Positions 1 to 12,047 are shown, numbered from the stretch's first letter. The stretch: 17,767 nt of DNA from a virus (IMGVR_UViG_2690316149_000014:1-17767), one strand, 5' to 3'. A program made the numbers and translations. The notes: generated by a model from the sequence alone, not told the origin.

Positions 1-1248
1 ATGGCACTGAATATTCCATTCAGAAATGCGTACTATCGTTTTGCATCCAGTTACTCATTTCTCTTTTTTATTTCCTGGTCGCTGTGGTGGTCGTTATACG
101 CTATTTGGCTGAAAGGACATCTAGGGTTGACAGGGACGGAATTAGGTACACTTTATTCGGTCAACCAGTTTACCAGCATTCTATTTATGATGTTCTACGG
201 CATCGTTCAGGATAAACTCGGTCTGAAGAAACCGCTCATCTGGTGTATGAGTTTCATCCTGGTCTTGACCGGACCGTTTATGATTTACGTTTATGAACCG
301 TTACTGCAAAGCAATTTTTCTGTAGGTCTAATTCTGGGGGCGCTATTTTTTGGCTTGGGGTATCTGGCGGGATGCGGTTTGCTTGATAGCTTCACCGAAA
401 AAATGGCGCGAAATTTTCATTTCGAATATGGAACAGCGCGCGCCTGGGGATCTTTTGGCTATGCTATTGGCGCGTTCTTTGCCGGCATATTTTTTAGTAT
501 CAGTCCCCATATCAACTTCTGGTTGGTCTCGCTATTTGGCGCTGTATTTATGATGATCAACATGCGTTTTAAAGATAAGGATCACCAGTGCGTAGCGGCA
601 GATGCGGGAGGGGTAAAAAAAGAGGATTTTATCGCAGTTTTCAAGGATCGAAACTTCTGGGTTTTCGTCATATTTATTGTGGGGACGTGGTCTTTCTATA
701 ACATTTTTGATCAACAACTTTTTCCTGTCTTTTATGCAGGTTTATTCGAATCACACGATGTAGGAACGCGCCTGTATGGTTATCTCAACTCATTCCAGGT
801 GGTACTCGAAGCGCTGTGCATGGCGATTATTCCTTTCTTTGTGAATCGGGTAGGGCCAAAAAATGCATTACTTATCGGAGTTGTGATTATGGCGTTGCGT
901 ATCCTTTCCTGCGCGCTGTTCGTTAACCCCTGGATTATTTCATTAGTGAAGTTGTTACATGCCATTGAGGTTCCACTTTGTGTCATATCCGTCTTCAAAT
1001 ACAGCGTGGCAAACTTTGATAAGCGCCTGTCGTCGACGGTCTTTCTGATTGGTTTTCAAATTGCCAGTTCGCTTGGGATTGTGCTGCTTTCAACGCCGAC
1101 TGGGATACTCTTTGACCACGCAGGCTACCAGACAGTTTTCTTCGCAATTTCGGGTATTGTCTGCCTGATGTTGCTATTTGGCATTTTCTTCTTGAGTAAA
1201 AAACGCGAGCAAATAGTTATGGAAACGCCTGTACCTTCAGCAATATAG
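1..1248 (+). CDS. cscB: Sucrose:H+ symporter, LacY / oligosaccharide:H+ symporter family (CscB-like), 415 aa
   Basis: Full ORF from ATG at base 1 to TAG 1246-1248; polytopic hydrophobic profile typical of 12-TM MFS permeases; recalled similarity to LacY/CscB. Gene symbol rests on recalled identity, not a search. Confidence 0.8.
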   Translation: MALNIPFRNAYYRFASSYSFLFFISWSLWWSLYAIWLKGHLGLTGTELGTLYSVNQFTSILFMMFYGIVQDKLGLKKPLIWCMSFILVLTGPFMIYVYEPLLQSNFSVGLILGALFFGLGYLAGCGLLDSFTEKMARNFHFEYGTARAWGSFGYAIGAFFAGIFFSISPHINFWLVSLFGAVFMMINMRFKDKDHQCVAADAGGVKKEDFIAVFKDRNFWVFVIFIVGTWSFYNIFDQQLFPVFYAGLFESHDVGTRLYGYLNSFQVVLEALCMAIIPFFVNRVGPKNALLIGVVIMALRILSCALFVNPWIISLVKLLHAIEVPLCVISVFKYSVANFDKRLSSTVFLIGFQIASSLGIVLLSTPTGILFDHAGYQTVFFAISGIVCLMLLFGIFFLSKKREQIVMETPVPSAI

Positions 1249-1256
1249 ACGTAAAC

Positions 1257-1301
1257 TTTTTCCGGTTGTTGTCGATAGCTCTATATCCCTCAACCGGAAA
1301 A
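1257..1301. repeat. Perfect 11-bp inverted repeat (TTTTCCGGTTG ... CAACCGGAAAA) with ~23-nt spacer, 9 nt after the cscB stop
   Basis: Seen directly. No T-run follows the stem on either strand, so it is not a canonical intrinsic terminator. Confidence 0.6.
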
Positions 1302-1689
1302 TAATAATAGTAAAATGCTTAGCCCTGCTAATAATCGCCTAATCCAAACGCCTCATTCATGTTCTGGTACAGTCGCTCAAATGTACTTCAGATGCGCGGT
1401 TCGCTGATTTCCAGGACATTGTCGTCATTCAGTGACCTGTCCCGTGTATCACGGTCCTGCGAATTCATCAAGGAATGCATTGCGGAGTGAAGTATCGAGT
1501 CACGCCATATTTCGCTATCAGGATTCTGTGTGATGGTTACATCGCCCGGCTCAGGGCTGTTTAGTCATCAGCGCTTTCTGACAGTGCTGAGATTTCAACC
1601 TGTTGCAGTAAAAATGAGTAGATATAAGGCAAGTGTGCTGCCAAACCCATCTTTTACGGGGTGAAGGTAGATTTCGTTTGAAGGGTATC

Positions 1690-1704
1690 TGGTGTCCCCT
1701 GCAG
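1690..1704 (-). other. Attachment-site core (attR-like): 15-nt copy of the 3' end of tRNA-Arg argW (CTGCAGGGGACACCA on minus strand); chromosome/prophage boundary
   Basis: Plus strand reads TGGTGTCCCCTGCAG, the reverse complement of the recalled argW 3' end. Chromosomal gene (cscB) on the left, phage genes on the right. No intact tRNA is present. Confidence 0.6.
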
Positions 1705-1777
1705 ACATCTACTTGACGAGGCAGGGGATTGATTGGAATGGTGTTTTTTAGATATGAGAAATATTTTACCCGCTATT

Positions 1778-1978
1778 TTACCCATTGGCGCGGCTTAAGA
1801 GCTTATTTTTGAATTCACAATGGTCACGATATAACCATCTTGCTCGCCCGTGGATAACTTTGGCTTTAGGCAGGTCCCCGGACTTAATCCGGTCATAGAT
1901 GAAGGTTTTACCGAAGCCAGTATCGGCCATGATGAATTTCAAATCAACCAGTGAATCAGGCTGTAGTTCGTGTTGCAT
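1778..1978 (-). CDS. torI: Excisionase / recombination directionality factor, AlpA-TorI family, 66 aa
   Basis: 66-aa ORF 73 bp inside the att core; size and basic winged-helix-like sequence (…FGKTFIYDRIKSGDLPKAKVIHGRARW…) match recalled TorI of KplE1. GGAG about 10 nt upstream of the ATG. Confidence 0.7.
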   Translation of the reverse strand: MQHELQPDSLVDLKFIMADTGFGKTFIYDRIKSGDLPKAKVIHGRARWLYRDHCEFKNKLLSRANG

Positions 1979-1997
1979 GAGTGCTATCTCCGAATAG

Positions 1998-2013
1998 GGA
2001 ATCGAACCTGCAA
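1998..2013 (-). other. Second argW-derived block: 16-nt match to the tRNA-Arg T-arm (TTGCAGGTTCGATTCC), contiguous in the tRNA with the 1690-1704 block
   Basis: Plus strand GGAATCGAACCTGCAA is the reverse complement of recalled argW nt 45-60. Lies 20-35 nt upstream of the torI ATG. Confidence 0.55.
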
Positions 2014-2022
2014 ATCAGGCAA

Positions 2023-2044
2023 TAAAAAAACCGCATTGATGCGG
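2023..2044 (-). terminator. Putative intrinsic terminator (minus strand): CCGCA/TGCGG stem followed by a T8 run
   Basis: Plus strand shows A8 then CCGCATTGATGCGG; on the minus strand this is hairpin plus U-run, 60 nt after the stop of the 2104..2475 gene. Confidence 0.45.
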
Positions 2045-2103
2045 CAATGGCAGGTCTGGATATCTTGAGAAATGAACAGGCCTCATCGAGTGTGAGGCTG
2101 TGG

Positions 2104-2475
2104 TTAGTCCTTGCGTAACTCGCTAATTCTTCTGTAAGTCTCTGGTGCTTTGTTTCCGTGTATCTTCATTTCAGACTTCAACAGAGCAACGAGGGAATCC
2201 CATTCGTTGAGGATGCCTTTGAATGCCGGAACGCGCTTTGCAACCTTGTCGAATGAATCTCTGATTTCTGGGATCTGCTCAACAAGTGCAACGCATCGTC
2301 GGAAATCGGCTGCGTCATGTGGAGCGCCGAAGTGATGACCATAGATATTCTTTTTCAGTCCACATGCGATTGAGGCAAGAGTTGCGCTACTGATGCCGAC
2401 ATCGCCAGTCGATTGCCATTTCAAAACCTTCATAGCCAAATCTGACATTTCTTGTCTCCAATAAAAAACCGCCAT
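2104..2475 (-). CDS. Hypothetical phage protein (123 aa from ATG 2475; 114 aa if started at ATG 2448)
   Basis: ATG 2475 overlaps the upstream ORF stop as TGATG (translational coupling); the internal ATG at 2448 has RBS GGAGACAAG. No family recognised. Confidence 0.5.
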   Translation of the reverse strand: MAVFYWRQEMSDLAMKVLKWQSTGDVGISSATLASIACGLKKNIYGHHFGAPHDAADFRRCVALVEQIPEIRDSFDKVAKRVPAFKGILNEWDSLVALLKSEMKIHGNKAPETYRRISELRKD

Positions 2476-2482
2476 CAGGCGG
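2463..2482 (-). terminator. Short terminator-like hairpin (CCGCC-ATCA-GGCGG plus T6 on minus strand) overlapping the 2475 start codon
   Basis: Seen directly; 5-bp GC stem only, so it may simply be coding sequence. Confidence 0.3.
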
Positions 2483-2642
2483 CTTGGTGTTCTTTCAGTT
2501 CTTCAATTCGAATATTGGTTACGTCTGCATGTGCTATCTGCGCCCATATCATCCAGTGGTTATAGCAGTCGTTGATGTCCTCTGCTTCGATAACCCTGTC
2601 GAATGGCTCTCCATTCCATTCACCTGTGACTCGGAAGTGCAT
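2475..2642 (-). CDS. Hypothetical small protein, 55 aa (MHFRVTGEWNGEPFDRV…)
   Basis: Below the 60-aa track cutoff. ATG 2642-2640 preceded by RBS GGAGATGA; stop overlaps the next start (TGATG). Confidence 0.4.
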   Translation of the reverse strand: MHFRVTGEWNGEPFDRVIEAEDINDCYNHWMIWAQIAHADVTNIRIEELKEHQAA

Positions 2643-2714
2643 TTATCATCTCCATAAAACAAAACCCGCCGTAGCGAGTTCAGATAAAAGAAATCCCCGC
2701 GAGTGCGAGGATTG

Positions 2715-2804
2715 TTATTGTCTTTTCTTCGTGCATTTGTCGCACTTTCGGCACCATCCAGATAGGCACATCCGTCCGCAATTAACACATATAGGCCACA
2801 TCAT
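2715..2804 (-). CDS. Cys-rich micro-protein, 29 aa (MMWPICVNCGRMCLSGWCRKCDKCTKKRQ), zinc-ribbon-like
   Basis: Below the track cutoff. RBS AGAGGA; ATG overlaps the upstream stop as ATGA; four CxxC-type pairs. Confidence 0.35.
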   Translation of the reverse strand: MMWPICVNCGRMCLSGWCRKCDKCTKKRQ

Positions 2805-3079
2805 TTTTCCTCTTTTGGTTTATGAATCTGAATGGTCATGCCGCTTTGAGTGGTGACTACAATGACAGAACCAGGCTGAAGACTGTTAAGATTGAATGCT
2901 TCGTAAAACGAATCCAAGGCCAGCGTTTTTTTATTCTTTCGGTTCCACCAACGCCATCCCTTGCTACAGGCTACACTGACAATCCACTGCCCACTCCTGT
3001 AAGCCATATAAAACCAGATGAGCAAAACCTGAAGGAATGCTATCCAGTCAATAATCGTATATTTCGCGAAGGAGTCCAT
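2801..3079 (-). CDS. Hypothetical protein, 92 aa, N-terminal hydrophobic helix
   Basis: Track ORF 2801..3082 begins at GTG; the ATG at 3079 has RBS GAGGTG and overlaps the upstream stop (TGATG). Confidence 0.5.
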   Translation of the reverse strand: MDSFAKYTIIDWIAFLQVLLIWFYMAYRSGQWIVSVACSKGWRWWNRKNKKTLALDSFYEAFNLNSLQPGSVIVVTTQSGMTIQIHKPKEEK

Positions 3080-3945
3080 CACTTCACCTCCTGCTGCGGT
3101 GCTGCTGGCATTTCACGCCAGTGCGTAACTGAGTGCGGATCCGGATATTCAGTGCCATCATCCCAGCGATTGCCATTCCACATTGCAGACCACATCTCAC
3201 CGTCTTCATACATGACCATTACCGGAATTAACTTATCCGGCATTCGCTCACTACAGCTTATCCAACCATCCGGAGTTACCGGAACTTGCGGAATGGCTGT
3301 CTGCTCTCGAACGTCATTAGGCGCTATAGGTTCTGCTGCCAACTGACTGGCATATTTGTTAATGGTAACGATAAGCTCTTGCTCAGCCTCATCCAGACAA
3401 TCACCGATACCTCGCCTGTCACCGTCAAAATCATCGAAATCGGCACGAATCTTGGCAACCTTCAGGATTGCGGACAACACTTCACTAGGAATTACCGGAT
3501 AGTTGGTTGACGTTTCCGCGATTTCCCGAAAATTATTGGTTGACGAATTCTTATTTTCCCGAAAGTTTCCGGACTGAAGCATGGCGGCGCGGCAGGCGTT
3601 CCAGCCTCTCACCTCTGCAATAGCGGCAACAGCATCAACCGCGTACATGCTAAGAGGATTAGGCATTGGTTTTTCTTCCGGTACTACTGGAACGGGGGGA
3701 GCGGCGTAGACCTCAATAATTCCATTATCAATAGGCCATTCTCCATCCTTGAGGTAGTCACTTGTGCCGTCAACTTGCTGTTCTGCAATGTGGAATGCAC
3801 CTATTGGTTTTGCTTCCAGCGATGCCAGAGCAATCCGTGCCAGTTCTTCCGCTTCTTCTGCTGGCAGTACAACGTTGCTACCCGGTCCGTATGTTTCGCG
3901 CCACTGCTTGATTGTCAGCAGTCGCTCTTTGGTTATAGTGGTCAT
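3079..3945 (-). CDS. Phage protein with C-terminal DUF551-like domain, 288 aa
   Basis: C-terminus (…DGWISCSERMPD…VTHWREMPAAP) resembles the recalled DUF551 signature of lambdoid early-region proteins; N-terminal two-thirds unassigned. Confidence 0.65.
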   Translation of the reverse strand: MTTITKERLLTIKQWRETYGPGSNVVLPAEEAEELARIALASLEAKPIGAFHIAEQQVDGTSDYLKDGEWPIDNGIIEVYAAPPVPVVPEEKPMPNPLSMYAVDAVAAIAEVRGWNACRAAMLQSGNFRENKNSSTNNFREIAETSTNYPVIPSEVLSAILKVAKIRADFDDFDGDRRGIGDCLDEAEQELIVTINKYASQLAAEPIAPNDVREQTAIPQVPVTPDGWISCSERMPDKLIPVMVMYEDGEMWSAMWNGNRWDDGTEYPDPHSVTHWREMPAAPQQEVK

Positions 3946-3955
3946 TTGTTATGCC

Positions 3956-4153
3956 TCAATACACGAAATCTGTTTTAAATTCATGGTTACATTCTGGACA
4001 GCATGTTTCGTAACCTTTTATTTCTTCACATGCCTGTTTAGCTCCAGAAAACTCCCAGAAATCTGGATCACAAAGCAGATCGAAATTGTGACCACATTTG
4101 GGACATTCGGTATCAAGTGACAGACTCCAGTAGGCAGTGATGTTTTTATCCAT
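3956..4153 (-). CDS. Small zinc-ribbon-like protein, 65 aa (two CPxCG-type pairs)
   Basis: Track ORF 3956..4186 overlaps the upstream gene; the internal ATG at 4153 has RBS AGGAG and sits 1 nt after the upstream TGA. Motifs CPKCGH…CCPECNH. Confidence 0.55.
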   Translation of the reverse strand: MDKNITAYWSLSLDTECPKCGHNFDLLCDPDFWEFSGAKQACEEIKGYETCCPECNHEFKTDFVY

Positions 4154-4154
4154 A

Positions 4155-4655
4155 TCACTCTCCTTTGATGCGAATGCCTGTTGCAATGCTGTTTATGATG
4201 CTGTCAGTGCATGGGGTAGAAAGCTGGGCATCTCCAGCAATTTTCATGACCTCAACATCTGCATATCGAATACCGAGGTGTATCAGACCGGCTATGCCTG
4301 ACTTAAGCCGAGCATTTTCCATAAATAGAACTTTTGCCCGCTGTTTTTCTGCTTCAAGCTCAACACGCAGCTTCCCTACCGTTAGCGCAATATCCTCGTT
4401 CTCCTGGTCGCGGCGTTTGATGTATTGCTGGTTTCTTTCCAGCTCATCCAGCAGCGCCCGAACTACATCAGCGGTTTTCTGGCACTGGTCAACAATGCTA
4501 ACGTCACAACCAGTATCGAAACCGTCCTCAGTTTCAAAGCGGAGCTCTACAGAGTCGCCGTCGATATCAGATGGTTCGAACCCGGCAATGTTTTCCAGAA
4601 TGCCGATTATGCTTTCTGCGCTATGACGTAATGCGCGTTTGTCGATGTTGCTCAT
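4155..4655 (-). CDS. Hypothetical phage protein, 166 aa, acidic N-terminus and coiled-coil centre
   Basis: RBS GGAGG 7 nt upstream; start overlaps the upstream stop as ATGA. Confidence 0.6.
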   Translation of the reverse strand: MSNIDKRALRHSAESIIGILENIAGFEPSDIDGDSVELRFETEDGFDTGCDVSIVDQCQKTADVVRALLDELERNQQYIKRRDQENEDIALTVGKLRVELEAEKQRAKVLFMENARLKSGIAGLIHLGIRYADVEVMKIAGDAQLSTPCTDSIINSIATGIRIKGE

Positions 4656-4933
4656 TGGGCGGCCTCCGGTATTTTTCTTGCGCTGAATTGAGGTACATGT
4701 TCCATTTCAACCGTGAATACACCTACGCTCTCACCGTCAATGAATAGCTCGATATCCAACGGCCAGTCAGATTCCAAGCCGTCATGATTGTCAAAATAAT
4801 CAAGGGAGGCATCCTGAGACAAGCATTCCAATTCCCACTCAGAAATGAGCTCATCGATGTGTCGAGGATCGAGAAAAAACGCATCCTCAGGAAACGTGCC
4901 TGCATCTCTAACTACGTACTGGATTACGCTCAT
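4652..4933 (-). CDS. Hypothetical acidic protein, 93 aa
   Basis: Track ORF 4652..4987 trimmed to the ATG at 4933, which has RBS AGGAGG and overlaps the upstream stop as ATGA. Confidence 0.55.
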   Translation of the reverse strand: MSVIQYVVRDAGTFPEDAFFLDPRHIDELISEWELECLSQDASLDYFDNHDGLESDWPLDIELFIDGESVGVFTVEMEHVPQFSARKIPEAAQ

Positions 4934-5373
4934 TGGTTGCCTCCTTTGCGAAGCTGGGCAGCAATACTTACGCATATCTCTGCGCATCTAATCAGCCCCG
5001 GAACGTTCTTGTTTGGCCCAACTTCACCATCAACAAAATCAATCATCGCGTTACGAGCCATCTCCACACCCTGCGCCCGCACTTCAGCCAGGAAGGCGTC
5101 GGTGGCTGGGGTTCCCTCTACCACTAACCCTACTGGAGCTAGATATTCTTTCATCCCCGCATTCTCCACAGCCAGCGCCGCGCACTTGGCCTCAAGGTTA
5201 TCAATCGTGATTCCAGCAGAACGACACTCACGCAACGCTGTTTCTAGTTTTGATTCAAGTTCACCGAACTTACGCACCAGATATTCAGCGTTTGTTTCGT
5301 TAACCTTTAAATCACTTGGGATGCATTTACCTTTCAGAAATCCATCCATCTCAATTAGTGACATTTGTTTCAT
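4930..5373 (-). CDS. Hypothetical phage early protein, ~147 aa
   Basis: Track ORF 4930..5391 starts at GTG with no RBS; the ATG at 5373 follows GGAG/GGGAAG. Start uncertain. Confidence 0.55.
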   Translation of the reverse strand: MKQMSLIEMDGFLKGKCIPSDLKVNETNAEYLVRKFGELESKLETALRECRSAGITIDNLEAKCAALAVENAGMKEYLAPVGLVVEGTPATDAFLAEVRAQGVEMARNAMIDFVDGEVGPNKNVPGLIRCAEICVSIAAQLRKGGNQ

Positions 5374-5668
5374 TTCTTCCCACTCCGCCACATCGCATTC
5401 AGATATTTGTTTTGATTCACTGATGCTTAAGAATTTCTCTTAAGCAATTCCTCTCTCGATGGCATTGGCTTTACGCGTTGGCGAATAATCATTTCTGCCG
5501 GAAGAATGCCGGGATTGTATGCAAGACCTCTCATGATTTACTCTCCACGAACTGGTCAATAGCCATGCTAAGTGACACACCTAAAGTCTCGATATGCTGC
5601 TGAATATCCTGTAGCGTCTGCGCCTGAGATAACAGGATTTCACGGTTGCATAACTCTTTAACCAGATG

Positions 5669-5821
5669 CTAAAACTTGCTGTAATAACCGATACGGCTTA
5701 GTGTTTCTTTCCCTGCATTCTCGCCTTCTTTGATAATTCCTCTTTCGCTAAGAATCAGATCGTGTTTTGTTCCGGTAATAACGTATTTTCCGAGGTCGAT
5801 GTTTAGCTTCATTGTTTTCAT
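5669..5821 (-). CDS. Hypothetical small protein, 50 aa
   Basis: Track ORF 5669..5971 overlaps the upstream gene for 140 nt; the internal ATG at 5821 has RBS GAGGAA and sits just after the upstream TGA. Confidence 0.4.
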   Translation of the reverse strand: MKTMKLNIDLGKYVITGTKHDLILSERGIIKEGENAGKETLSRIGYYSKF

Positions 5822-5831
5822 TGTTAATTCC

Positions 5832-6125
5832 TCAGTCATTACTGATAGCGCCATAGCGTGAGCGGTAATTACGCAGGCGCGGGTCGATTTCAGGGAAGTG
5901 GGTATATGTGGCTTTGCGGAATGGTCGGATTGATGTCTGGTAAATTCGCTCTCGTTCTTCTTTCTCTGCAAGCCATATGCAGTGGCGAAACTCCTTTTCC
6001 TCTTTCGTTTCCTGCGGTAGAGACATTATTCGATCGTAGTTTTTTCTGAATTTATCCAGCACCTCCGATACGGAATTGCCGGAACAGCGGCGCGGGTCAT
6101 CCGCACCATATAGAGGCGCTGGCAT
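5832..6125 (-). CDS. Hypothetical phage protein, 97 aa
   Basis: RBS AGGAGAA 5 nt before the ATG at 6125; operon position between the exonuclease and downstream accessory genes. Confidence 0.55.
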   Translation of the reverse strand: MPAPLYGADDPRRCSGNSVSEVLDKFRKNYDRIMSLPQETKEEKEFRHCIWLAEKEERERIYQTSIRPFRKATYTHFPEIDPRLRNYRSRYGAISND

Positions 6126-6141
6126 GGTTTTCTCCTGTTGA

Positions 6142-6690
6142 TTATTTAGCTAACTTTTTCCAGATCGCTGAAACGTATTTGGCTTGGTGGATGGCATCAT
6201 CAAGCGCGTTGTGGCGAGTTCCTTTGAATGGCATATCTCGCTTAGGATCGAATCCTATTACCTTCCCAAGTTCGACGATTGTTCTTACGTCGCGGTCATT
6301 CCACCACTGCCACGGAACTGGCTGCCCTGTCAGCGAATAACTGTTGCGGAGAATAACGCAGTCAAATGATGCTCCATTCCCCCAAACCTGAACGAGTTTG
6401 TGGTTGGCGTTCTTTATGATGAATTCAGATAACCATGAAAGAGCCGTTGAAAGCTCTTGAGTGTTGCTGGTTAGCGATTTTCTGGCTTCTTCACTCTGTT
6501 CCATCCACCATAAAATCGTTGAAGCGTCAGGACGCGCCCGATATCGCATTGATGACTCAAGCGAGATATTTACCGAGAACTCTTCTCCTGTTTCTCCGGT
6601 ATTCGGGTCAAAGAATACCGCCCCAATAGAAATAACTGGCGCATATGGCCCGTTGCCCATTGTTTCAAGGTCAACCATTAAGTGATTCAT
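6142..6690 (-). CDS. 3'-5' exonuclease, DnaQ-like DEDDh family, 182 aa
   Basis: Exo I motif MVDLETMG near the N-terminus and Exo III-like H…ALDDAIHQAKY near the C-terminus; RBS AAGGA. Confidence 0.8.
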   Translation of the reverse strand: MNHLMVDLETMGNGPYAPVISIGAVFFDPNTGETGEEFSVNISLESSMRYRARPDASTILWWMEQSEEARKSLTSNTQELSTALSWLSEFIIKNANHKLVQVWGNGASFDCVILRNSYSLTGQPVPWQWWNDRDVRTIVELGKVIGFDPKRDMPFKGTRHNALDDAIHQAKYVSAIWKKLAK

Positions 6691-6698
6691 GTAAGTCC

Positions 6699-7205
6699 TT
6701 AAATTGCGTGAATAGCGTGACGAGGGAAGGGGAGAGTTACTGGTGCAAAGGGTATATCGTCGTCAAAATCCATCGGAGGTTCGTTGTGTTGTGCTGGTGA
6801 TGATTGCTGCTGTGGTTTCTGTGATTGCCTGCTGGCTGCTTGTTGTTTGCTGTCGCCAATGCCGCCAAGCATTTGCATCACGCCATTAATTCCGACATGA
6901 ACCTCGGTTGTGTAACGGTCTTGCCCTGACTGGTCTTTCCACTTTCTGGTTCTCAGCATTCCCTCGAAATAAACCTGATCACCTTTTTTCACATACTGCC
7001 CCACGACCTCAGCCAGTTTCCCGGATACAGCAACACGATGCCATTCAGTCAATTCCTTTTGCTCGCCAGTATTTTTATCTCGCCATTGTTCTGACGTGGC
7101 TATTGTCAGGTTAGCGAACGCTGTTCCTGATGGTGAGTATCGAACTTCCGGGTCTTGTCCTACCCGACCAAGGATAATCACCTTATTTACGCCTCTGCTT
7201 GCCAT
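6699..7205 (-). CDS. ssb: Single-stranded DNA-binding protein (phage SSB), 168 aa
   Basis: N-terminal OB-fold signature ([23 protein letters not shown]…), Gln/Pro-rich linker and acidic C-terminal tail …MDFDDDIPF. Confidence 0.9.
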
Positions 7206-7913
7206 TTATGCCGCCTGTTTTAGTTCGTTAACTCTGATGTTCATTACCTGAACGCATTTAGCCTGCGCATCCTCATTGCCAGCCATTAATTGCCAGTCAT
7301 GCTGATAACGTTCTATGAGTTTTTTCTTGTCAGTTTCTGTTGATGCATAATCGCTGAAGTCTTTCAGGATTTGTTCGCAGTCAACCGATGGAGATTTCTG
7401 GTTGGTATTTTCTGGTGATGGTTTGTTATCTGATGCTGGGATTGCCCATCCCGGCAGCGATGGAGGGAGCCAGTAAAATCCTGTTCCATCTTTCAGTTTT
7501 GCCCTGTGCCATCCCTGCTTTTTATCGAGAGATGTTTGTGCGAAACCTTCCTCAAGGTTATACAGATACCGACCGATTCCCCATTGAACGGCAGCACGCT
7601 TCATTGCACCGGAACGACCACCTTTGACGGCTTCTACCTGCGTGTTTTCAGCAGCATCCCATTTGGTTACCCATTCGGAATCAATCTTGATTGATATGCC
7701 GCATTCAACTCCGCCGTTGTTGGGAATATCGCGGTATTCATTGCGCCATCCTGCTTTGCCGCAAACATCGTCCAGGCGTTTCATGATTGCCCTGTTCGTG
7801 ACATAAGCCAGCACCATAGCCCACACCTTTCCATCGCGTGTTTTACCGCTTTGCTGTATTCGCCATTCGATATCTTCAGGGCTGAATGGCTCATCGAATT
7901 TATTCAAATCCAT
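7206..7913 (-). CDS. Single-strand annealing protein, Rad52/22-like family, 235 aa
   Basis: Motif …GGRSGAMKRAAVQWGIGRYLY… recalled as typical of phage Rad52/22-type recombinases; RBS GAGGTGA; stop abuts the ssb ATG (TAAATG). Confidence 0.65.
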   Translation of the reverse strand: MDLNKFDEPFSPEDIEWRIQQSGKTRDGKVWAMVLAYVTNRAIMKRLDDVCGKAGWRNEYRDIPNNGGVECGISIKIDSEWVTKWDAAENTQVEAVKGGRSGAMKRAAVQWGIGRYLYNLEEGFAQTSLDKKQGWHRAKLKDGTGFYWLPPSLPGWAIPASDNKPSPENTNQKSPSVDCEQILKDFSDYASTETDKKKLIERYQHDWQLMAGNEDAQAKCVQVMNIRVNELKQAA

Positions 7914-10051: not shown

Positions 10052-10351
10052 TCAAATAAGTGGTTTGCTGCCTAATTTCATTTTCTGGCGACCAACACAA
10101 GTCACACCCATTTCACTGCGTGGCTTGCGGTAGTAAATACGATTCTGTTTACTCTCTACTTCTTCTGCCTTCTTGCAGCGAAGGCTTCCGAGTGATGCTG
10201 CTTTATCTGCTCTGACGCAACCAGAGAGCTTTAGCGCAATTTTTCGCGCCAGTCGCTGCTCTTGCATTGCCTGTTCACGTTGAGCCTGTCTGCGTGCTCT
10301 GCGGCGATTTCTGGCGTTATCGTCAGCCAGATATGTAATGACTACTGTCAT
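10052..10351 (-). CDS. N: N-family transcription antiterminator, 99 aa, with arginine-rich motif
   Basis: Track ORF 10052..10423 trimmed to the ATG at 10351 (RBS GGAGG). N-terminal ARM …NARNRRRARRQAQREQ…; first gene downstream of pL/nutL; matching boxA/boxB sites on both sides of the immunity region. Confidence 0.65.
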   Translation of the reverse strand: MTVVITYLADDNARNRRRARRQAQREQAMQEQRLARKIALKLSGCVRADKAASLGSLRCKKAEEVESKQNRIYYRKPRSEMGVTCVGRQKMKLGSKPLI

Positions 10352-10391
10352 GTTGACCTCCGGGAAGGTACACATCCTTGTGTGTCGATGA

Positions 10392-10511
10392 TTATTTGTT
10401 TTTGCGTTCCCACATCCAGTCATCTACTTCAGACCAGATAGTGAAACCGAAGCAGATGGCGAATGTGGTAACTAAACCACCGAGAATTGGGTTGGTCATG
10501 ATGTCTAACAT
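10392..10511 (-). CDS. Possible small hydrophobic peptide, 39 aa, in the pL leader between nutL and N
   Basis: Below the track cutoff. RBS GAGGAA 6 nt before the ATG; one predicted TM helix. Could be a chance ORF. Confidence 0.25.
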   Translation of the reverse strand: MLDIMTNPILGGLVTTFAICFGFTIWSEVDDWMWERKNK

Positions 10512-11330: not shown

Positions 11331-12047
11331 TCAAACCAGTCTGAGTTTTGTCTCAATTGCAACGCCTATAATCTTGCAGTTTCCATTGATTGGCACGAGA
11401 GGCCATGCAGGATTAAGTCCCTTGAGGTATTTATTTCCGCCGTCGATTATCAGCTTCTTGAATGTTGCTTCGTTAGAGTCAGAAAGTTTTGCTATGACCA
11501 AGCTGCCGTTGATCGCCTCCCTTCCGGTATCGAAAAGAACGAATGTTCCCTCTGGAATGCTTAACCCAACCGGTGCCGTCATTGAATCACCTTCCACTTT
11601 AAGCCAGAACGCATTACCTTGAATATGCGCGTCAGACTCAAGCCAAACATCTATGTCTTTAATGGTGTATGGTTCGCATGCTTCACACCACGAGCCAGCC
11701 TGGATACTGCTTAACACCGGATACCTCTTTCCTGCTCTGTATTCCCCTGCATACCTTACGTTGGCATCGCTCTTAAGGCTTTCTGCCTGTTCTGCAACCT
11801 TGGCAGCAATTGACTGGCTAAAATCAGCAATTGAGACTTGCAACAATCGTGCAAAACCAGATGCAACCTCAACGTTTAGCGCGTTTCTGCCATTAAGATA
11901 ATGCCCTACCGCTCCTTGGGTGATACCCAGTTCATCAGCGATTGAGTATTGGGTTATTCCCAATTCTTTCTTTTTTGACTCATACAAAGCCTTAAGCCGC
12001 TTAGCGTCTTCGAGCTGTTCTGTCGTCAGTGATTTTTTATTTTCCAT
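11331..12047 (-). CDS. cI: CI-type prophage repressor: N-terminal XRE-family HTH plus C-terminal LexA/S24-like autocleavage domain, 238 aa
   Basis: HTH …QYSIADELGITQGAVGHYLNG…; C-terminal S24 signature …GDSM…/…KL…; no SD before the ATG (leaderless, as for lambda pRM); divergent from cro across an operator region. Confidence 0.9.
   Translation of the reverse strand: MENKKSLTTEQLEDAKRLKALYESKKKELGITQYSIADELGITQGAVGHYLNGRNALNVEVASGFARLLQVSIADFSQSIAAKVAEQAESLKSDANVRYAGEYRAGKRYPVLSSIQAGSWCEACEPYTIKDIDVWLESDAHIQGNAFWLKVEGDSMTAPVGLSIPEGTFVLFDTGREAINGSLVIAKLSDSNEATFKKLIIDGGNKYLKGLNPAWPLVPINGNCKIIGVAIETKLRLV

Follow-up and report, generated by a model that had tools for sequence, protein, structure and literature searches.

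The 17,767-nucleotide (nt) viral sequence IMGVR_UViG_2690316149_000014:1-17767, referred to here as the window, covers one end of a lambdoid/P22-like Escherichia coli prophage. A block of small genes on its minus strand, spanning positions 2104-5391 and designated g1 to g9 (Table 1), is very probably the accessory 'ea / exo-xis' part of a pL-type operon, the leftward early one, and is built as a mosaic of small-gene cassettes that can be exchanged. Seven of the genes are tightly packed into two runs, g1-g2-g3-g4 and g5-g6-g7; two single-gene modules, g8 and g9, come next, each made up of a Shine-Dalgarno (SD) sequence, an open reading frame (ORF) and a terminator hairpin with a T-run. Judged by homologues and substitution patterns, all genes of the block are conserved and under purifying selection. 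The architecture itself is ordinary, being the usual tight packing of non-essential early genes between the recombination genes and the excisionase. The only result of the block with some newness, and a modest one, is g7, a cysteine-rich micro-protein. We consider it reasonably likely that g7 is a real and widespread micro-protein missed by annotation, that it forms a minimal zinc knuckle, that it is always translated by coupling to the upstream gene, and that it is found in temperate lambdoid/P22-like phages, virulent siphoviruses and a 154-kb myovirus.

The identity of the block follows from its setting. A single minus-strand run leads from a CI-type repressor/N-like antiterminator pair through Erf, SSB and Abc2 to a TorI-type excisionase, as in the early-left (pL) operon of lambdoid phages. 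With the repressor and N-like genes upstream and the excisionase downstream, an earlier sequence-only reading was correct in taking the region for a set of small, early accessory genes in a lambdoid prophage. Comparison of positions 2000-5700 with sequence collections gave partial matches, at 90-99% identity, in 602 phage records and in 3776 of 5426 complete E. coli genomes. Coverage of the block stayed below 80% in every record of either collection, and the block is therefore a new mosaic, of which the cassettes are widely shared. The closest phage match was the P22-like phage Gally, whose annotation names the overlapping genes EaA, EaD and EaE.

The known counterpart is the exo-xis region of lambda and Shiga toxin (Stx) phages, which corresponds to the 'ea' region in P22-like phages (ea22, ea8.5, orf60a/61/63, lambdap35; EaA/EaD/EaE). 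The block shares with this region its position from the recombination genes to xis, an Ead/Ea22-family gene (g3, PF13935) and a lambdap35 homologue (g8, of which the homologue in phage mEp213 is annotated, in a GenBank note, as similar to lambda lambdap35). Small, variable and non-essential genes are likewise common to both (PMC10695390; PMC3824215). In contrast, the block is a different mosaic that contains DUF551, DUF4752, g2 and the g4 zinc ribbon, and no homologues of ea8.5 or orf60a/61/63 were seen in it. Effects on lysogenisation and induction have been described for the equivalent region of lambda and Stx phages, in which Ea22 is pro-lysogenic (PMC3824215; PMC7093339; PMC10834534). When the lambda PL-operon genes were tested by CRISPR interference, all but N were dispensable for plaque formation (PMC10695390). 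It is highly likely that the products of the present block are non-essential accessory proteins: a coiled-coil protein of the Ead/Ea22 family, a DUF551 protein, a membrane-anchored DUF4752 protein, a very acidic 93-amino-acid (aa) protein and a zinc-ribbon-like 65-aa protein.

Among these small genes, g7 was studied through a family set of 31 distinct DNA versions and 32 distinct peptides of 24-38 aa. Its members share the core MWPIC-x2-CGR-x-C-x3-WC-x-KCDK, in which the pattern CxxC-x8-CxxC is contained. Across the 31 versions the proportion of synonymous differences (pS) was 0.79 and that of non-synonymous differences (pN) 0.135, giving a ratio of 0.17, against 1.3-1.6 in the other two frames. 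Third codon positions were variable at 20 of 23 codons in an earlier set of 24 versions. The invariant residues are encoded by changing codons, with four used for Gly, five for Arg, both for each Cys and several each for Ile and Asp. Of the two CxxC pairs, C5, C8 and C17 were present in 31/31 versions and C20 in 29/31. The family sequences were retrieved with peptide patterns, which inflates amino-acid conservation and does not create synonymous divergence. On this comparative evidence, g7 is a real gene and represents a conserved, unclassified and hardly ever annotated family of cysteine-rich phage micro-proteins in temperate and virulent phages.

Intact copies of g7 were detected by tblastn in P22-like and lambdoid phages, in the virulent siphoviruses Deseoctovirus C1, Skatevirus KFS-SE2, ST1UNAM and Swiduovirus CF-SP1, and in the Citrobacter myovirus Tr1. 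In prophages the gene is also found flanked by a TraR/DksA-type zinc-finger gene and a NinX-like gene, and two variants (L211 and L212, VOFL01000127.1) stand directly behind the end of a DUF551-type gene (MWPICRHCGRKCWLEWCKRCDKPS). Six gene contexts were found altogether. The neighbours include DUF4752, the TraR/DksA finger with NinX, Pfam-less proteins, a protein with a sub-threshold match to MazG and the DUF551-type gene end. DUF4752 has g7 behind it in 50 of 81 loci and a different cassette behind it in the others, and no constant gene partner of g7 was seen in the neighbourhoods examined. A scan of GTDB species representatives gave one locus, in Kluyvera, and a scan of metagenomes gave 43 loci of the same classes, with no fusion of g7 to a larger protein. 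Some variants, in which the usual stop is lost, are extended at the C-terminus (L155, 35 aa; L166, 29 aa). The small ORFs of the block thus proved to be conserved, g7 and g8 in related phages and g7 in unrelated ones as well; both of those missed by the ORF track, 55 aa (g8) and 29 aa (g7), are present where the sequence-only reading had placed them. The spread of g7 across phages would suggest a portable function directed against a common enterobacterial target.

An alternative is that the 29-aa ORF is no gene, and that its DNA or RNA is conserved for another purpose, such as a terminator region or a recombination boundary. Tandem terminators do lie directly downstream, the near-identical lambdoid copies differ mostly non-synonymously, and g7 is unannotated by the Prokaryotic Genome Annotation Pipeline (PGAP) in all 11 full-length matches listed out of 184 complete E. 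coli genomes carrying the segment; under those 11 matches the DUF4752 gene only is annotated. This alternative is nevertheless very improbable in view of the low pN against high pS in 31 DNA versions, a pN/pS above 1 in the other frames, the use of several codons for each of the invariant Gly, Arg, Cys, Ile and Asp, and the retention of ATG, stop and SD where no terminator comes after. Elsewhere wrong-frame ORFs have been annotated over it, namely mEp213 gp28 (1517-1756 of locus L167) and CDS0021 of phage Dewey (3024-3125 of locus L168). Their equivalents in the window, 2549-2788 and 2680-2781, run through the terminators and have no PHROG match. The correct peptide is annotated in HK106 gp30 and a few third-party annotation (TPA) entries for metagenome-assembled genomes (MAGs).

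The peptide of g7 had no significant match in Pfam (best E 0.48-5.7), NCBIfam, PHROGs or PADLOC, nor among PDB chains, where the best E-value of 0.58 was obtained with the zinc ribbon of RNA polymerase III RPC2. A literature search with the peptide string returned nothing relevant. Paired CxxC motifs are shared by g7 and g4 with the small zinc-ribbon and zinc-finger proteins of phages (YnfU NF038384, TraR/DksA PF01258, Zn_ribbon Pfam), and a finger gene of the TraR/DksA type stands directly before g7 in one of its contexts. Compared with those families g7 is shorter (24-29 aa) and matches none of them significantly. Most likely, to judge from the cysteine pattern, the peptide is a minimal zinc knuckle in which the CxxC...CxxC cysteines would bind one zinc ion, and it probably acts by binding another macromolecule. 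Three other leads on g7 were rejected. A programmed frameshift from g6 into g7 lacks an X XXY YYZ slippery site at GGAAAAATGA, and g7 keeps its own ATG in other contexts. The exact-sequence cluster containing the peptide is an artefact, with an unrelated 480-aa protein as its representative, and the 'DUF1244' label on TPA MAG entries with the peptide was not reproduced by hmmscan.

Table 1. Genes, junctions and terminator-like elements of the block and its surroundings in the 17,767-nt window.
Feature	Coordinates	Strand	Remarks
g1	4930..5373	minus	147 aa; phrog_614, E 1.3e-50; start ATG 5373, not the ORF-finder GTG 5391
g2	4652..4933	minus	93 aa; net charge -18, pI 4.1; start in ATGA overlap with g1 stop
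g3, Ead/Ea22-like	4155..4655	minus	166 aa; PF13935, 74.8 bits (cut-off 27), profile positions 1-139 of 139; start in ATGA overlap with g2 stop
g4	3956..4153	minus	65 aa, acidic; two CxxC pairs (zinc-ribbon-like); phrog_4173, E 1.1e-27
g5, C-terminal DUF551	3079..3945	minus	288 aa; PF04448, 65.9 bits (cut-off 22), residues 227-284
g6, DUF4752	2801..3079	minus	92 aa; hydrophobic N-terminal segment; PF15944, 123.4 bits (cut-off 27); start in TGATG overlap with g5 stop
g7, Cys-rich micro-ORF	2715..2804	minus	29 aa from ATG 2804 (ATGA) or 28 aa from ATG 2801 (TGATG)
g8	2475..2642	minus	55 aa, acidic; phrog_676, E 5.4e-39, positions 1-55 of 55; own SD
g9	2104..2448	minus	114 aa, basic; phrog_1229, residues 1-114 on profile positions 1-113 of 116
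ATGA junction	4930-4933	minus	g1 stop / g2 start
ATGA junction	4652-4655	minus	g2 / g3
TGATG junction	3077-3081	minus	g5 / g6
ATGA junction	2801-2804	minus	g6 / g7
Two tandem intrinsic-terminator-like hairpins with T-runs	2662..2713 (2713-2692, 2681-2662)	minus	close run g5-g7
Terminator-like hairpin with TTTTTT	2466..2485	minus	end of g8; -13.4 kcal/mol, z -2.65
Two hairpins after g9	2030..2098 (2098-2080; 2045-2030 with T7 run)	minus	terminator scan and folding
CI-type repressor gene	11331-12047	minus	phrog_4; upstream of the N-like gene
N-like antiterminator gene	10052-10423	minus	phrog_271; upstream of block
Erf gene	7206-7913	minus	upstream of block
SSB gene	6699-7205	minus	upstream of block
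Rv2179c-like exoribonuclease gene	6142-6690	minus	upstream of block
abc2, P22 anti-RecBCD gene	5832-6125	minus	PF11043; upstream of block
DUF2737 gene	5427..5534	minus	35 aa; PF10930, 71.7 bits (cut-off 25); phrog_1117; SD GGAGAG
TorI-type excisionase gene	1778..1978	minus	phrog_66; RefSeq 'torI: response regulator inhibitor TorI'; distal end of leftward run
Host LacY-family transporter gene	1-1248	plus	start of window

Junctions and SD sequences were read directly on the minus strand. An SD-like sequence of the GGAG or GAGG type lies 5-9 nt before every accepted start: GGAG for g1 (before ATG 5373), AAAGGAGG for g2, GGAGG for g3, AGGAG for g4, GAGG for g5, AGGAGG for g6, GAGG for g7, and GGAG for both g8 and g9. 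The sequence-only reading had cited five stop/start overlaps and had given each start its own SD. Four of the overlaps (4930-4933, 4652-4655, 3077-3081 and 2801-2804) are gene junctions, whereas the fifth, at 2473-2477, is part of a terminator-hairpin loop and lacks an SD; the second statement holds for every accepted start but fails for ATG 2475. In addition, the g3 stop (4155-4157) and the g4 ATG (4153-4151) nearly meet, with a gap of 1 nt and no overlap, and g4 and g5 are 10 nt apart. The methionine conserved in the g7 family is that of the second ATG (2801), so the g6/g7 junction can be read as ATGA or as TGATG.

The chosen starts are supported by PHROG profiles that begin at the proposed methionines. 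Starts internal to the longer ORFs were indeed found for g2 (ATG 4933), g4 (ATG 4153) and g6 (ATG 3079), as had been proposed. Among ten clusters of g2 homologues, 7 are full-length at exactly 93 aa and the other 3 are partial (51-75 aa). The left edge first given to the chain, GTG 5391, is not the start of g1; it is GTT in nine of the related loci listed, and ATG 5373 with its preceding GGAG is kept in related loci. At g6 the arrangement AGGAGG-N6-stop/ATG, with the junction as cAGGAGGtgaagTGATG / AGGAGGtgaagTGATG or in a TAATG form, is kept in most related loci, also behind different upstream sequences. In a minority of related loci TTG or ATG stands at the stop position and there is no overlap. 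Within its called frame g6 had a pN/pS of 0.12, and the non-called frames of the genes tested (g6, g7, g8 and g9) had values of 0.8-3.7.

The overlap of stop and start as ATGA or TGATG is the commonest arrangement of neighbouring same-strand genes in bacteria and phages. Compared with shuffled sequence, neither motif was enriched in the block; ATGA occurred 23 times against 17.4±4.0 and TGATG 7 times against 3.8±1.9, both within about 1.5 standard deviations. Counting overlapping ORFs of 25 aa or more was too naive a test to serve as evidence, with the opposite strand and shuffles scoring like the coding strand. The junctions are real because the flanking genes have homologues, not because of the motifs. 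A layout expected of coupled pairs, with a stop/start overlap or a few nt and no terminator or promoter between the genes, was found for g1/g2, g2/g3, g3/g4, g5/g6 and g6/g7. It was absent from g7/g8 (72 nt, two terminators) and g8/g9 (26 nt, one terminator). The region had been described as one continuous, translationally coupled operon. Most of its genes are in fact joined in an arrangement that fits translational coupling, in the two runs g1-g4 and g5-g7, but one of the proposed junctions is spurious and the terminators after g7 and g8 break the chain; coupling itself remains a prediction from the layout.

Within each run, a ribosome ending one gene would re-initiate on the next (termination-reinitiation coupling), which would tie together the outputs of adjacent genes and make a separate 5' leader unnecessary for the translation of very short ORFs. 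With known termination-reinitiation systems the block shares the 4-nt and 1-nt overlaps and the SD inside the upstream gene; it differs from them in that one of the five claimed overlaps is no gene junction and in that coupling is here predicted from sequence. A contrary explanation denies the overlaps any regulatory role and treats them as a by-product of genome compaction and cassette exchange, with each gene initiated via its own SD. Such an explanation agrees with the SD found at every accepted start, with ATGA, TGATG and overlapping ORFs being no commoner than in shuffles or on the opposite strand, and with the coincidence of junction sequences and mosaic boundaries. It is at odds with the spacing of g7: irrespective of the gene that precedes it, and across six unrelated contexts, the family ATG is at -1 or +1 nt relative to the preceding stop codon in 127 of 129 instances; compaction alone permits a spread of short distances. 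We regard the by-product explanation as somewhat unlikely. The fixed distance of g7 is the best available support for coupling and suggests that coupling may be a selected feature.

Several points weigh against the interpretation of the block as a pL segment with a coupled, zinc-binding g7. Coupling, read-through and zinc binding are all properties that we infer. Given an SD of its own at every accepted start, independent initiation is equally possible. Neither pL nor nut sites were located, no search having been made for either. The near-identical lambdoid copies of g7 carry few substitutions, mostly non-synonymous and two of them changing one Cys. These copies alone give no selection signal, so the signal for g7 comes from the divergent copies retrieved by pattern. 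Finally, the CxxC-x8-CxxC spacing resembles that of the RPC2 zinc ribbon at the level of the motif only, at a non-significant E-value.

Terminators were identified by a terminator scan and RNA folding statistics. The tandem hairpins behind g7 (2713-2662) have a folding energy of -25.4 kcal/mol (z -5.1), and none of 200 shuffles was as stable. Only 1 nt separates the g7 stop (2715-2717) from the 5' arm of the first hairpin; this distance is about 7 nt in the virulent siphoviruses, and in the TraR/NinX contexts there is no terminator at the corresponding position. A ribosome terminating at the g7 stop would cover the 5' arm, and g7 translation could in this way modulate termination. An Rfam scan of positions 1200-6200 gave nothing at E <=0.1.

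The two modules that follow are also well supported as genes. For g8, 52 DNA versions were compared, 50 of them intact, with a pN/pS of 0.27; it is present or absent as a unit among related loci, with boundaries of the form 'TTTTAT-GGAGA'. The 'TGATG' at 2473-2477 sits in the loop of hairpin 2485-2466. ATG 2475 was rejected as the start of g9, being in this loop without an SD and reading ATT in locus L016. The nine-residue N-terminal extension it would give was likewise rejected; unrelated sequence replaces it in five g8-less loci, in which GGAGACAAGAAATG is kept. Annotated homologues of g9 are 114 aa long. On account of the unconserved extension, the conserved GGAGACAAGAAATG and the length of these homologues, the start of g9 is placed at ATG 2448, from which the pN/pS was 0.10. 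Some members of the family phrog_8038 appear to have been called from the false long start of g9.

The promoter scan detected nothing like a sigma-70 promoter ahead of g8 or g9. By analogy with lambda N, expression of both genes most likely depends on read-through by antiterminated polymerase. Transcription would proceed from pL, with an N-like-modified RNA polymerase passing the internal terminators, and the block would be expressed as delayed-early genes on infection or induction.

The region had also been proposed to hold host-interaction and anti-defence factors. That proposal was a guess from location, and searches of Pfam, NCBIfam, PHROGs and PADLOC assigned no block protein to any known family of defence or anti-defence factors. 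At least one gene of the chain could still be an anti-defence or host-takeover factor, the candidates being the acidic g2 as a DNA mimic and g7 as an inhibitor peptide. The block is an early, non-essential and highly variable region adjoining a bona fide anti-RecBCD gene, abc2 (PF11043), the 93 aa of g2 carry a net charge of -18, and g7 and g4 also occur in virulent phages. We hold this to be rather unlikely, as none of the proteins resembles a characterised anti-defence protein (Abc2, Ral/Lar, Ocr/ArdA-type DNA mimics, Acr or others), g1, g2, g5, g8 and g9 have no match among PDB sequences, and the lambda exo-xis genes that have been studied act on the lysis-lysogeny decision and not on defence (PMC3824215; PMC7093339).

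Other features of the individual genes may be added. A segment of about 65 nt around the g1 start (window 5345-5410; ACAAATATCTGAATGCGATGTGGCGGAGTGGGAAGAAATGAAACAAATG) is near-identical in loci in which the g1 bodies are only 45-65% identical, and the sequences upstream of it are of two types. By this comparison the segment is a conserved mosaic boundary or a regulatory element. An antisense ORF (4165-4626, plus strand) opposite the coiled-coil region of the Ea22-like g3 matches phrog_13760 (E 7e-17), a family that was probably built from mis-called antisense ORFs. A g4-like stretch of about 65 codons (query coverage at least 91%) was found in phages of Salmonella, Klebsiella, Erwinia and Yersinia, with 44 records altogether, and g4 has sub-threshold matches to YnfU and the Rad50 zinc hook.

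The DUF2737 gene lies just upstream of the block and belongs to the same minus-strand gene run. Its 35-aa protein covers positions 1-35 of the 53-position Pfam model, and this short form is common, being found in 44 related loci at 94-100% identity. Further upstream, a 50-aa ORF (5669-5821) matches the N-terminal half only of phrog_154 (positions 1-51 of 112). The next 135 nt or so contain no ORF, and a short open frame within them runs as far as the DUF2737 start, which it overlaps as ATGA. By this sequence comparison, positions 5535-5821 look like the remnant of a truncated gene. At the other end, the window starts with a host gene for a LacY-family oligosaccharide transporter of the major facilitator superfamily (MFS), and the prophage follows. 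The 530 bp between the transporter gene and torI contain no integrase gene, the window as a whole lacks a tRNA gene, and the same adjacency was seen in 372 complete E. coli genomes. Presumably this MFS/torI end without int is of the kind found in KplE1/Sf6-type prophages, with attP between int and xis and int at the opposite prophage end.

The overlapping-gene architecture requires no new biology, being the usual lambdoid packing of exchangeable early accessory genes. Gene callers and curators mishandle the region, long-ORF starts being wrong for at least five genes. The conserved SD and stop/start junctions mark sites of cassette exchange in the region and would serve as short homologies for cassette swaps between phages. 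The g7 family is a clean example of a conserved phage peptide of fewer than 30 aa, with a likely metal site, that is found in temperate and virulent phages.

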